Below are positions 41,801-45,608 of a DNA stretch of 64,000 nt, piece after piece. Position numbers and translations under genes: made by a program. The notes under the pieces are model-generated. The model saw nothing but the letters and a program-made list of their open reading frames with translations. It made no database searches and was not told the DNA's origin. The stretch spans positions 2,112,001 to 2,176,000 of the forward strand of contig CP166615.1 of assembly GCA_041937175.2 (NCBI GenBank). The letters are read 5' to 3'. The stretch's first letter is position 1. Each line of letters starts with the position of its first letter. The stretch is from Limnothrix sp. BL-A-16 (GTDB lineage: Bacteria; Cyanobacteriota; Cyanobacteriia; CACIAM-69d).

Positions 41801-42203
41801 GGTTGTCTCAATGCAGCATCAAGCGGCATCTGCATTAAACCAAACTCAAACTTAAGCTCAAACTTCAAACCAGAAGCAAACTTCAACTCAAACCTCAACA
41901 AGGCCTGTAAAGCCCCTTGGCCCCATCCTCTCGCCAAAGCGGGATCAGGGTTGGGGAAACCCAACGAAAGATGCTCAAAATCCTAGGGGGTATCGTCATT
42001 TTTCGAGGTGATACTGAAACGGTTGATCTTCTGTGCCCTAATCTTCGTAACAAGGGGCTTAAGCCCCTTGTCCCCCATGATCCGTTAACGACAGATCTAG
42101 GGTTTCGTGCTCAACGATGACAGGTCTTAAGCCCCTTGTCCCCCACGATCCGTTAACGACAGATCTAAGGTTTCGTGCTCAACGATGACAGGCCCTTGTA
42201 TGT

Positions 42204-42425
42204 GGAAGGCGGTGGAGCAGGAAGGTTAAGCTCAGGCATAATCGACCCTCTCCCATCCGGTAGAGACTCTGGACAGGCCCTGAAGCTCCGAAGCTTGAGG
42301 CTTAGATTGAAGAGCCGACCGGAACCCGCCTTCCCGGACACTGCCAGTAGACTGAACAGTATTCAGAGTGACCGCTTGAGCGCTGTCACCTCGGATCAAG
42401 CAAGGGTAGCACTGGGTCAGTGACC
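42204..42425 (+). ncRNA. bridge RNA of the IS110 element
   Basis: LTG 42273-81, RTG 42299-305, LDG 42356-63 and RDG 42401-04 match the reconstructed target and donor; closing and internal stems are present. Confidence 0.88.
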
Positions 42426-42451
42426 GTCCCTCTTTCTTGTCCACCCCAACC

Positions 42452-43465
42452 ATGACTAATCCAATCTATATTCCCCTGGGCATCGACATCAGCAAACACC
42501 ACTTCGATGTTGCCCTCTGCAAAGCACCCTCGACCGCTCGCAGCAAAAGTGCCTTTCACACCAGCCAGTTTGCCAACAACGAAACCGGATTTCACGAATT
42601 ACTCGCTTGGCTCGAACAACACCAAGTCCACCACATTCATGCTTGCCTAGAAGCAACTAACATTTATGGTCATGAGTTGGCAGCCTTCCTGTATCAACGG
42701 GAGCAGCGGGTCAGCATTGTGAATCCTTCCCAAGTCAAGGGCTATGGGCAAAGTCGCCTGAAGCGCACCAAGAGTGACCAGGCGGATGCGGGAGTGATTG
42801 CCCAATTCTGTCGTGACCTGACTCCTCCCCTGTGGGAACCGTTACCGGAAGCCCTAGAGCAATTGCAGCAGCTTTCCCGCCGCGTGGAAGCGCTGATCTC
42901 GATGCGGACTGAGGAGAAAAATCGGTTGGACTCTTGCCGTAATCCCCACTTACAGACTGATCTACAAGCCCATATTGCCTATCTGTCGGAGCGGATTGAT
43001 GACCTAAAAAAGCTTATGCGCGAGCATATTCGCGCCCATGAAGCCCTTGCTCATCAAAGCCAATTGCTCTGCTCGATTGTCGGCATTGCGGAAACCACCG
43101 CCACCAACTTGTTGGCGGAGATTGGTGTGATTCAGCGCTTTGCTTCCGCTAGACAATTTGCGGCTTTTGCAGGTCTCACTCCCCGAGAATTTATCTCGGG
43201 GACATCTGTTCGCGGCAAGACTCGATTGTGCAAAATTGGTAATGGTCGGCTGCGAAAAGCCTTCTATTTTCCAGCCTTGTCAGCCTGTCGCTATTGTCCT
43301 GAGATTGCAGCATTTCGCAACCGATTAGTCGCGGCGGGCAAAACACCCATGCAAGCCATTGGCGCTGTGATGCATAAGCTGGCCAGGATTGTTTTTGGGG
43401 TGCTGCGGCATGACAGACCGTTTGACCCCAGCCAACTGGCAGTCACCACAGAGCCTTGCTCTTAG
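42452..43465 (+). CDS. IS110 DEDD recombinase/transposase
   Basis: [18 protein letters not shown] (D-E-D-D), GLTP...[17 protein letters not shown]. Confidence 0.96.
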
Positions 43466-43586
43466 GCTTTACATTTTGTCACTTTCAGACCCTTGCGCCT
43501 CCTCGGCGAACACAGTATCTAAGCCCCTTGTCCCCCACGATCCGTTAACGGCAGATCTAGGGTTTTGGGCTAAGCGATGACAAGCC

Positions 43587-45608
43587 TTAGGGTTTCTGGA
43601 ATTCCCAAGGTTTCCGAAAATCTTCCGCCGGCACCCCTTGCAGCGCCTTCAGCATAAACTCCCGCCAGATGGGAGCCACATAGCTGCCCCCCGTGGCCCC
43701 GTAGCCGATCGGGCGGTAATTGTCATTCCCCGCCCAAACCGCCACCGACAGTTGTGGCACATAGCCCACAAACCAAATATCCCGCTCTGAATCCGTTGTG
43801 CCCGTTTTGCCCGCCGCTGGCCGACCAATATTGGCCGTCTTGGCTGTGCCGTTGGTAATCACCCCCCGCAGCGTATCCGTGAGGGTTGCCGTCGCCCAAG
43901 GATCCAGCACCAGTTGCGGCCGGGGCGTGTTGTCCAACAGCACCTTTCCGCTGCTGTCGGTCACCTGCACAATAAACGTGGTGTCCGAATGCCAGCCATT
44001 ATTGGCAAACGTGGCATAGGCTCCCGCCATTTCCAACGGGGTCACGTCCTCCGACCCCAAGGGCAAGGACAGCACCGGCTCCAGCGGGCTTTGGAAACCC
44101 AACAGCCGACAGGTTTCAATCACCTTGTTCAGCCCCACTTCCTGGCCCAGGCGCACCACAGGAATATTCAGCGAAATTTCCAAGGCGCGCCGAATCGAGA
44201 CTGAACCTGAGAAACCGCCCCCGTAGTTCTTGGGCCGATACATCACACCCCCATCGTTGTAGCTGACGGGCGTGTCATTCACGGCGGAATTGGGCGTGTA
44301 GCGGCCAGTGGCAAAGGCCGCGTAATACACAAAAGGTTTGAAGGCAGATCCCGGTTGGCGCATGGCCTGAATGGCCCGGTTGAACTGGCTCTTGCGATAG
44401 TCCACGCCGCCCACCATGGCCTTCACGAAGTGGGTACGCGGATCCACCGCCACCAGGGCCACTTGATCCGCTCGCAACCCGCGCGATTGCATCCGAGCGT
44501 GGGCCGCGCTGACGGTGGCCTCAGCCATCGTCTGAAAATCAAAGTCCACGGTGGTTTGAATCCGCATTCCCCCCTTGAACAGATCTTCGCGCCGGAAGCG
44601 TTTTTTCAGTTCTTGGGTCACCGCCTCGGTCACGTAGGGCAGCTTACTGGACTGGAAGGAAGTACTTTTGCCCAAATTCAAGGGTTGATTGCGGGCGGCC
44701 AACTCCTCGGCGGGCGTGATCCAACCCAAGTCCAGCATTCGCCCCAACACGATCGCCTGGCGTTGCTTCGCTCGCTCGAAGTTCAGGAATGGGCTGTAAT
44801 CTTCGGGAGCTTGGATCAGGCCCGCCAGCATGGCGCTCTCGGCCAGGTTCAAATCGGAGGCCGATTTGCCAAAGTAGCTGCGGGAAGCGGTTTCAATGCC
44901 GTAGTTGTTGTGGCCCCAATAGACCTGGTTCAAATACAGCTCTAGGATTTCGTCCTTTTTCAGGATTTGTTCTAAGCGCAGAGACAAAACCGCCTCAGCC
45001 ACCTTCCGGCTAATTCGGCGCTGGGGTGACAGAAACAGGTTTTTGACCAACTGCATGGTCAGGGTGGAGCCACCTTCGGAGGTGCGCCCGCGCTCCAGGT
45101 TGGTAACCAAGGCACGCATGATGCTACCGGGGTTGATGCCAGGGTGCTGATAGAAGCTGCTGTCTTCGATCGCGATGACGGCTCGCTTGAGGTGGGGCGA
45201 GATTTGGTTGAGGGGGACAACGACCCGGTTAGCTTCGTCGTGCAAGCTAGCCAGCACCCGCCCTTTGATGTCGTAGATATAGCTGGTTTCGCTGGGGGTG
45301 TAGGTTTGCAGAATCCGCACATCCGGTAGGTTGCGGAAGCTAACAGCCAAGCCCACCAAGGCTCCGGCCACGGCGGCGCTGCCCAGCATGGTGACGGTCA
45401 ACAGAGTGCCGCCGGTAATTTGCCCCGCTCCAACGACCAAACGCCACAGACCCGGGCTGGGAGGCTCGATCGGGGAAGGCGTGGCGGAGGTGGATCGGGG
45501 CAAGGGGCGAACTCCCGATCGGGGACGACGGGGAGAAGGCTTGTGTGAAACGTTGGAAGACACAGGCGAGAGCAGGCTCCTAACCGATCGCGATCGATGG
45601 AATTGCAC
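43587..45608 (-). CDS. penicillin-binding protein 1A family (transglycosylase-transpeptidase); start may be GTG 45563
   Basis: EDSSFYQH, GGSTLTMQL, RKVAE, SAFK, KTGTT. Confidence 0.95.
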   Translation of the reverse strand: MQFHRSRSVRSLLSPVSSNVSHKPSPRRPRSGVRPLPRSTSATPSPIEPPSPGLWRLVVGAGQITGGTLLTVTMLGSAAVAGALVGLAVSFRNLPDVRILQTYTPSETSYIYDIKGRVLASLHDEANRVVVPLNQISPHLKRAVIAIEDSSFYQHPGINPGSIMRALVTNLERGRTSEGGSTLTMQLVKNLFLSPQRRISRKVAEAVLSLRLEQILKKDEILELYLNQVYWGHNNYGIETASRSYFGKSASDLNLAESAMLAGLIQAPEDYSPFLNFERAKQRQAIVLGRMLDLGWITPAEELAARNQPLNLGKSTSFQSSKLPYVTEAVTQELKKRFRREDLFKGGMRIQTTVDFDFQTMAEATVSAAHARMQSRGLRADQVALVAVDPRTHFVKAMVGGVDYRKSQFNRAIQAMRQPGSAFKPFVYYAAFATGRYTPNSAVNDTPVSYNDGGVMYRPKNYGGGFSGSVSIRRALEISLNIPVVRLGQEVGLNKVIETCRLLGFQSPLEPVLSLPLGSEDVTPLEMAGAYATFANNGWHSDTTFIVQVTDSSGKVLLDNTPRPQLVLDPWATATLTDTLRGVITNGTAKTANIGRPAAGKTGTTDSERDIWFVGYVPQLSVAVWAGNDNYRPIGYGATGGSYVAPIWREFMLKALQGVPAEDFRKPWEFQKP

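Follow-up and report, generated by a model that had tools for sequence, protein, structure and literature searches.

Within the IS110 family of insertion sequences (ISs), IS4321 and IS5075 reportedly use the terminal inverted repeats carried by Tn21-family transposons as a specific site; both are said to belong to the IS1111 group, which has subterminal inverted repeats and encodes its RNA at the other end. To our knowledge, the natural bridge-RNA targets described so far are repetitive extragenic palindromes (REPs) and a few special sites. Here we describe an IS of the cyanobacterium Limnothrix sp. BL-A-16, located at 42197-43520 of a 64,000-nucleotide (nt) stretch of its genome (the window; positions 2,112,001 to 2,176,000 of contig CP166615.1, assembly GCA_041937175.2), that is very probably an IS621-like member of the IS110 family, active or recently active, and guided by a bridge RNA that reads the edge of a MITE (miniature inverted-repeat transposable element). 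Coordinates without a prefix are positions in the window, C1 is a contig of the host genome (G000; 4.56 Mb in two contigs), and MITE-B and arm types A and B are labels of our own. In the Tn21-type case the insertions are reportedly in large autonomous plasmid transposons with the crossover inside the repeat, whereas the target here is a non-autonomous 142-bp chromosomal MITE and the crossover falls exactly at the boundary between the MITE and its flanking TA.

The element resembles IS621 of Escherichia coli in its full-length recombinase homology, its left-end bridge RNA and its 9-nt left target guide (LTG), which includes the CT core, and also in that it targets an intergenic repeat of high copy number and has the core close to the repeat end. 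The wild-type target of IS621, ATCAGGCCTAC, lies at the end of REP sequences (PMC11208160), whereas here a TA-duplicating MITE, and not a REP, provides the target at its boundary, the match of the right target guide (RTG) covers 7 nt rather than 4, and the host is a cyanobacterium. ISPpu9 and ISPpu10 of Pseudomonas putida insert site-specifically in clustered, alternately oriented REPs with many empty sites (PMC12288879). They share with the present element site-specific insertion into palindromic repeat clusters and the many sites left empty; they differ in their AG core and in a target within the REP, and they involve no TA-flanked element with terminal inverted repeats. Our literature search found no account of an IS110 element aimed at MITE ends, although the supplementary target tables of the bridge-RNA papers might hold such sites unremarked. 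The mechanism is a known one; what is new is the kind of target, the join of a MITE to its TA duplication. The locus bears on how a programmable guide finds a neutral, self-multiplying landing pad, on the natural strictness of each target half, and on whether the CT-core preference of IS621-like enzymes suits TA-duplicating elements that end in C. It supplies natural cyanobacterial guide/target pairs for bridge-recombinase engineering, and no new mechanism.

The span 41986-43589 is a single MITE array split by one IS. Every sequence that a first-pass annotation of this DNA had described was found where it had been placed, and a repeat finder recovered the one MITE left arm and three 68-bp units that it had reported. 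The three units are direct repeats that begin near 42060, 42128 and 43520; their spacings are 68 and 1392 (68 + 1324), and units 2 and 3 are therefore tandem once the IS is removed. The features of the locus, with the evidence for each, are:

41984-41985, no strand: TA at the left edge of the MITE array, the MITE target duplication (TA/TA in 75 of 104 adjacent MITE-B end pairs; array absent at the orthologous locus of G002, a genome of the same genus).
41986-42059, minus strand: MITE-B left arm, B-type, inverted, opening with the terminal repeat GGGGGTATCGTC and closing with the left half of the palindrome (arm cluster 2).
42051-42070, no strand: perfect 20-bp palindrome CAAGGGGCTTAAGCCCCTTG, the MITE core (326 exact genomic sites, 652 two-strand matches).
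42060-42127, plus strand: 68-nt unit 1, an A-type arm with terminus GATGACAGGTCT; its junction with unit 2 has the core TT and is empty (sequence reading, repeat finder).
42128-42195, plus strand: 68-nt unit 2, an A-type arm with the terminal repeat GATGACAGGCCC at 42184-42195 (sequence reading, repeat finder).
42188-42196, plus strand: left target and core, ACAGGCC + CT, in which C is the final MITE base and T the first base of TA (same in all four genomic copies and in the further insertions L053 and X8 described below; 9/9 match of the LTG).
42197-43520, plus strand: IS110-family, IS621-like insertion sequence, 1,324 bp counting one CT core (four genomic copies 100% identical; CT at both junctions).
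42197-42410, plus strand: left-end non-coding region, predicted bridge RNA, with an approximate 3' limit (alignment and consensus fold with seven relatives).
42273-42281, plus strand: LTG, ACAGGCCCU (9/9 to the left flank; covariation in relatives).
42299-42305, plus strand: RTG, GGCUUAG, then a conserved AU at 42306-42307, where IS621 has its handshake guide (7/7 match with the reverse-complemented CT+AAGCC).
42356-42362, plus strand: left donor guide (LDG) core ACAGUAU, equal to the final 7 nt of the right end ahead of CT (conserved in eight of eight aligned elements).
42395-42405, plus strand: putative right donor guide (RDG) region AUCAAGCAAGG, partly complementary to the left-end CTTGTAT (CAAGG invariant; assignment by inference).
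42452-43465, plus strand: recombinase gene, 337 amino acids (Pfam domains, homology to the IS621 transposase).
43493-43520, plus strand: right-end TTGCGC (43493-43498), 17 nt and TATCT, a candidate -35/-10 pair only in the circular form (by inference; CTTGC conserved).
43521-43525, plus strand: right target AAGCC, the A of TA plus AGCC of the palindrome right half (sequence reading, copy contexts, guide match).
43520-43587, plus strand: 68-nt unit 3, an A-type arm with the terminal repeat GATGACAAGCCT; TA comes next at 43588-43589 (sequence reading, repeat finder).

The recombinase carries the Pfam domains DEDD_Tnp_IS110 (4.1e-29) and Transposase_20 (2.5e-24), both above the curated cut-offs, and its residues 9-328 align with the IS621 transposase 8wt6_A (E 6.5e-68). 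The catalytic residues of IS621 are D11, E60, D102, D105 and S241, followed by G242 (PMC11208158); all six aligned positions are identical in the recombinase described here (chain numbering offset by 2). The host genome, which its 5,252 copies of GCGATCGC mark as cyanobacterial, holds four copies of the IS, 100% identical to one another, at C1:438685, 2154197, 3000078 and 3394392. CT flanks both junctions in all four, and empty sites in G002 and in the host genome carry a single CT. The borders of the window copy lie at 42195-42196, where ...GACAGGCC-CT meets TGTATGTGG, and at 43519-43520, where ACAGTAT-CT meets AAGCCCC. Terminal inverted repeats were not found in the IS; a search of 41900-43700 gave no inverted repeat of at least 20 nt. 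Its DNA was not found in 40 relatives, two same-genus species included, the sole other match being 43 nt long (E 7e-4), and blastn against E. coli genomes gave no DNA match to it.

Two short segments of the left-end non-coding region correspond to the flanks of the IS. The sequence ACAGGCCCT stands both at 42273-42281 and, outside the IS, in the 9 nt at its left border (42188-42196), and CT+AAGCC (43519-43525) reappears reverse-complemented as GGCTTAG at 42299-42305. The LTG of IS621 is described as 9 nt long including the CT core, same-sense to the left target and core and pairing with the bottom strand, and its RTG as the reverse complement of core plus right target, pairing with the top strand (PMC11208160, PMC11208158). 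The RTG of IS621 is given as 4 nt, extendable to 7, and as longer in some orthologues (PMC11208160). We examined nine related elements with readable ends, the window copy included and the relatives drawn from genome and metagenome collections, and sought the flanks of each in its own first 200 nt. The left flank was present 9/9 in six of the nine (window, L053, L028, L030, L035 and L056) and partially in L027 (8/9), L078 (7/9) and L029 (6/9). The right flank (core plus 5 nt, reverse complement) was present 7/7 in four of the seven readable elements (window, L030, L035 and L056), and L053 had a 6/7 match at the homologous position; the best right matches of L027 (5/7) and L078 (6/7) fell at unrelated positions. 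Right matches in register lay 26-27 nt after the left match. Among 42 non-cognate pairings, the left match never reached 9/9 (one was 8/9) and the right match reached 6/7 at most. Since relatives carry their cognate flanks at homologous guide positions, the predicted LTG and RTG are supported by covariation, beyond the match in the window alone.

The consensus fold of eight left ends maintains the hairpin between the two guides by compensatory changes, and the AGAT after the RTG, which includes the position of the IS621 handshake guide, is invariant in their alignment. In the second loop, ACAGTAT (ACAGUAU in the RNA) and CAAGG are conserved in eight of eight, fitting the conserved ends ACAGTATCT and TGTATG. 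The pairing of the donor loop with the joined ends, through the LDG core and a discontiguous RDG, was assigned by eye; a discontiguous RDG has been reported for IS621 (PMC11208160). The first-pass annotation had taken the element for an IS110 whose LTG matches a MITE-family terminus and whose RTG matches TA and the right half of the palindrome. Both statements are supported: the element is an IS621-like IS110 with a bridge RNA, its LTG corresponds to the MITE terminus, and its 7-nt RTG to TA and the start of that right half. One of the relatives, the Oscillatoriales metagenome-assembled genome (MAG) contig L028, also holds at 890-950, upstream of its IS, a second copy of the target and after it the initial ~38 nt of the left end; this lone left-end fragment stands in tandem with the full element.

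The repeat that forms the left target is short, non-coding, present in many copies and bounded by terminal inverted repeats, which are the attributes of a MITE. The terminal repeats of MITE-B are GGGNNTGTCGTC and GACGACANNCCC, 12 nt long, and TA is duplicated upon insertion. GACGACANNCCC marks 203 exact termini (592 at up to one mismatch), and TA is next in 162 of the 203. Its NN positions are GG in 84 of the 203 exact termini, which is the commonest variant and the variant matched by the guide. Adjacent left and right ends form 104 pairs, 64 of them spanning 142-143 bp and 75 flanked TA/TA, and the centre of the element, between arm types A and B, is the 20-bp palindrome. An autonomous partner with MITE-B terminal repeats was not found in the host genome, where the 13 long end pairs examined enclose ordinary genes or the IS110. 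Three IS630-like copies (DDE_3, ~1,030 bp) end in TACAGCC...GGCTGTA, not in GGGCCTGTCGTC; IS630-like copies lie at G000:C1:513-896, 1247408-1247791 and 1391492-1391875, one with an in-frame TAG.

LTG and RTG jointly match the 14-mer ACAGGCC-CT-AAGCC, that is ACAGGCCCTAAGCC, and its parts correspond to those of the MITE seam. The commonest MITE-B terminal-repeat variant ends in the 8 nt that make up the left target and the first core base, the second core base plus the first right-target base are TA, and right-target bases 2-5 (AGCC) are the preferred flanking context of MITE-B. At the 122 ends of the 61 complete TA/TA copies, the base after TA is R in 114 (A in 71, G in 43), followed by G in 90, C in 75 and C in 76. 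MITE-B therefore prefers TA within ...GCY-TA-RGC..., and the palindrome centre is the best such site. The AAGCC of the guide thus equals the modal MITE-B flank, and its right-hand match is better described as the MITE-B target-site consensus, TA-R-G-C-C. TAAGCC follows 36 of the 122 ends, both ends in 10 copies. The junction of a MITE end with a half palindrome is not unique to this locus: genome-wide, a half palindrome comes immediately after a MITE-B end in 133 cases.

When up to three mismatches are allowed, the window contains 17 matches to the 14-mer; shuffles gave 5.7 +/- 2.4, and none of 100 reached 17. The sister junction at 42120-42133 reads ACAGGTCTTAAGCC, with two mismatches and the core TT, and is empty; the site at 50459-50472 reads ACAGACCCTAACCC, also with two mismatches, and is empty too, both as the first-pass annotation had it. 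Its further statement that the IS occupies the only perfect junction is right for the locus and wrong for the genome, where ACAGGCCCTAAGCC has 31 exact copies, all empty, with GACG preceding 30 of the 31. Free ACAGGCCCT sites number 155 in the genome, and 82 of these are MITE ends. Two same-genus genomes that lack the IS hold 12 and 17 copies of the exact 14-mer, and the landing pad is therefore older than the IS.

The four genomic copies of the IS share the left flank GA[CT]GACAGGCCCT, in the same orientation, and their 5-nt right flanks are AAGTC, AAGCC, AGGAT and AGGCC. With two insertions from other sources, the known sites and their right flanks are:

Copy 1, C1:438685: right flank AAGTCCCTTG, a half palindrome with one mismatch.
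Window copy, C1:2154197: right flank AAGCCCCTTG, a half palindrome.
Copy 3, C1:3000078: right flank AGGATTC, unique DNA.
Copy 4, C1:3394392: right flank AGGCCTG, unique DNA by comparison with G002.
L053, a metagenome contig of 95% nt identity: right flank AAGCCCCTTG, the IS lying between a MITE-B end and a half palindrome.
X8, a contig from a sequencing run: right flank AAGCCCAGG, no half palindrome.

All six insertions lie at MITE-B ends, so that other copies share the context of the window copy and are not in unrelated ones. A palindrome half adjoins three of the six. The composite of MITE end and half palindrome, which had been put forward as the target itself, is not needed: unique DNA stands to the right of the other three (AGGATT, AGGCCT and AAGCCCAGG).

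Comparison with empty sites allowed the order of events to be read. The 20 nt left of the IS and the 30-nt right consensus of the X8 contig match C1:1981174, an empty perfect 14-mer in the host genome, and the two form a natural filled/empty pair. At the copy-4 locus, G002 reads GATGCCT-TA-GGCCTGG, with a single TA and neither MITE nor IS, whereas the host genome has TA, MITE, IS and A-GGCCTGG; MITE-B therefore moves. At the copy-3 locus, G002 has a MITE end without the IS, GACGACATGCCC-TA-GGACTC, in which one left-target base differs, and at the window locus it lacks both the array and the IS. Comparison with empty orthologues, a check suggested by the first-pass annotation, thus yielded empty sites for the MITE as well as for the IS. 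These loci show the order of nesting: MITE-B enters a TA, preferentially the central TA of a palindrome, and the IS then enters the MITE edge. The same-genus orthologue of 41952-43588, at L012:2913-2987, has no MITE array; it holds ~2.5 copies of a 16-bp unit, GATCCTRAATCCGAGA, of which the window has one partial copy.

The two halves of the target differ in strictness. When wobble (rU:dG, rG:dT) is counted, the RTG pairs with all five right-target bases in copy 1, the window copy and copy 4, and with four of them in copy 3. Of the 82 free MITE ends with a perfect left half, 38 pair 5/5 with wobble, 30 pair 5/5 by Watson-Crick pairing only, and 49 have A-R-G. Right-guide pairing at occupied sites is no better than in this free-site pool. 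AAGCC stands at 31 of 86 perfect-left MITE ends (~36%) and at one of the four occupied sites in the host genome, which is no enrichment, and selection on the right half among occupied sites is not significant (n = 4). The right flanks of five Abditibacterium IS copies share AC, and the next three bases vary. In practice, the left half and CT are strict and the right half is loose, admitting wobble pairs and mismatches, and the palindrome half is preferred by the guide and unneeded. Wobble is tolerated at natural IS621 sites (PMC11208160). A 'half-match' preprint (10.64898/2026.08.31.748434) concerns the donor loop versus the target loop and not the left versus the right target, so we do not draw on it to account for the looseness of the right half.

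The palindrome CAAGGGGCTTAAGCCCCTTG is perfect and has no loop; its sites in the window are 42051-42070, 50347-50366 and 50385-50404. Genome-wide, 387 sites match it with up to one mismatch. The core of MITE-B, between an A arm and a B arm, accounts for 86 of them and the cores of two further repeat families for 72 and 14, which brings the cores of recognised families to 172 of 387; another 108 are flanked by unclassified DNA on both sides. By the clusters of half-sites (246, 213+123 and 33+22), no fewer than three repeat families, each with other arms, have the palindrome as their common core. A lone Y1_Tnp gene of 282 codons, similar to those of IS200 and of REP-associated tyrosine transposases (RAYTs), lies at G000:C1:1721435-1722280 (L085:1408-2253), and neither the palindrome nor a half-site was found in the 3.3-kb locus around it (none within 1.4 kb). 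The palindrome is short and high-copy, as REPs are, and lacks the association of a RAYT gene with flanking REPs. The label REP is not established for it; the third tier of the nesting is better described as the preferred TA site of MITE-B, of which the palindrome is the commonest form. The three-tier hierarchy of REP, MITE and IS110 proposed in the first-pass annotation accordingly keeps its nesting, which is real, while its REP tier is not established, there being no RAYT link and at least three families sharing the core.

Related IS elements sit at the ends of other MITEs. In an Abditibacterium MAG (G041), a 12-mer ending in the left target of the IS has 46 matches, whereas its reversed control has 7; the 46 fall mostly into minus/plus pairs at distances of 66-105 bp. 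All four retrieved examples (L086-L089) are 88-bp elements, GAGACACCGAT...ATCGGTGTCTC, flanked gTA...TAc, and all five IS copies (L030-L034) have an inverted partner 76-89 nt upstream. In a Geitlerinema MAG (G042), the corresponding 11-mer has 26 matches, paired at distances of 144-158 bp, whereas the control has 3; all four retrieved examples (L090-L093) are elements of 149-163 bp, GGGTGYGTT...AACACACCC, flanked gTA...TAc, and the single IS copy, L027, is at the right end of a 160-bp MITE copy. The three genomes thus present unrelated TA-flanked MITEs with the same geometry, in which the MITE closes with the core C, TA supplies first the core T and then, as its A, the first right-target base, and the next bases are the preferred flank of the MITE. 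The left flanks of L035, L056 and L078 have no inverted counterpart within 320 nt. The MITE-end pattern is therefore recurrent, but not seen in every relative examined. We lean slightly towards the view that aiming a bridge RNA at the outer boundary of TA-duplicating MITEs is a recurrent strategy of the IS621-like clade, here in three genomes of two phyla. If so, the guide would be retuned to whichever MITE abounds in a new host, and the parasitism would be nested, from palindrome or TA site to MITE to IS110. In G042, the guide of L027 has G where most genomic sites have A (20 ACACACCCTAC versus 6 ACGCACCCTAC). An rG:dT wobble would let that guide cover both MITE variants, and by the same logic the left half of the window site at 50459-50472 would be wobble-compatible.

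A sequence of events that would accommodate the observed anatomy, copy contexts, empty and filled sites and guide-flank covariation can be modelled on the biochemistry of IS621, from which its circular intermediate, junction promoter and RNA-guided chemistry are taken. The IS would excise as a circle whose joined right and left ends (RE-LE) form the donor ACAGTAT-CT-TGTAT. This joint probably builds a promoter: TTGCGC at 43493-43498 and TATCT are 17 nt apart, and the -10 element would be completed by the T that opens the left end. In all four aligned right ends CTTGC keeps the same distance from the terminus, and a promoter reconstituted across RE-LE has been described for IS110 elements (PMC11208160). 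One loop of the left-end RNA would pair with the joined ends of the IS itself and the other with the 14-bp target ACAGGCC-CT-AAGCC, so that the RNA would bridge donor and MITE edge while the recombinase exchanges strands at CT. Given its loose right half, the IS lands at MITE-B ends with or without a palindrome half.

Several observations weigh against an IS guided to the MITE-B edge. No matching transposase was found for MITE-B, and its mobility rests on the TA flanks and one presence/absence locus. Thirty-one perfect 14-mers are empty while three of the four genomic copies are at imperfect right halves, and the host genome therefore gives no statistical support for the reading of right-target bases 2-5; A-R-G is present at 49 of the 82 free ends, and its presence at four of four occupied sites has a probability of ~0.13. 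The LTG of L029 matches its own flank at just 6/9 in register. An Rfam scan of 41800-43700 at E up to 1 gave no match. The single-sequence fold of the left end (z -1.3) is no better than shuffles, and in the structure of lowest energy LTG and RTG pair with each other, so this fold is uninformative about the loops. Finally, no RNA ends, circle junction or excision joint were seen in four runs, which offered contigs only and are uninformative either way.

These points have to be set beside those for and against other explanations. The IS might require the composite junction of MITE end and half palindrome, in which case its landing sites would be palindrome-nested MITEs only. The 7-nt RTG is an exact match to CT+AAGCC, AAGCC occurs more often than any other right flank at sites with a perfect left half (31 of the 155 free ones), and three of the six known insertions are at such junctions. 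We nevertheless regard this requirement as improbable, because the right flanks of the other three insertions are different, that of copy 4 being unique host DNA in the light of G002; because perfect right halves are unenriched among occupied sites; and because the RTG of L053, GACUUAG, mismatches its own AAGCC flank at one position. It is harder still to credit that the three tandem 68-bp units were made by IS110 itself. Elsewhere in the host genome, A-type units of 68 bp stand in tandem without an IS, for example at C1:166120/166188, and G001, which has no IS, has four overlapping matches spaced 68-69 bp at C88:29064-29423. The boundary of the units is moreover a MITE end plus half palindrome, not the donor sequence of the IS. 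In favour of such an origin are the interruption of the array by the IS and a preprint (10.64898/2026.08.14.744561) that reports tandem non-coding repeats beside IS110 transposases, as a local tandem expansion.

Yet another explanation would place the shared left flank (GACGACAGGCCCT) within the IS, whose boundary would have been drawn 13 nt too far in, and would make the internal ACAGGCCCT a captured remnant and no guide. It accounts for the GA[CT]GACAGGCCCT common to all copies, but 82 free MITE ends carry the same sequence without an IS, the G002 orthologue of copy 3 is a MITE end alone, the left flanks past 13 nt differ in arm type, and the guide position changes with the flank in relatives; we give it next to no credence. 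We therefore retain the reading in which an IS621-like element is guided by its bridge RNA to the edge of MITE-B.

Contigs from a freshwater metatranscriptome (run X14) cover 42193-42404 and 42530-43505 with no differences, and the depth of the flanking single-copy DNA is zero. They are a weak hint that the left end of the IS and the recombinase gene are transcribed; copy number or DNA carry-over may also explain them.

Single 68-bp MITE arms in head-to-tail order, which are half elements, recur outside the window, at the C1 and G001 positions given above. Such tandem arms are not expected of a simple nested insertion, which would yield inverted arms.

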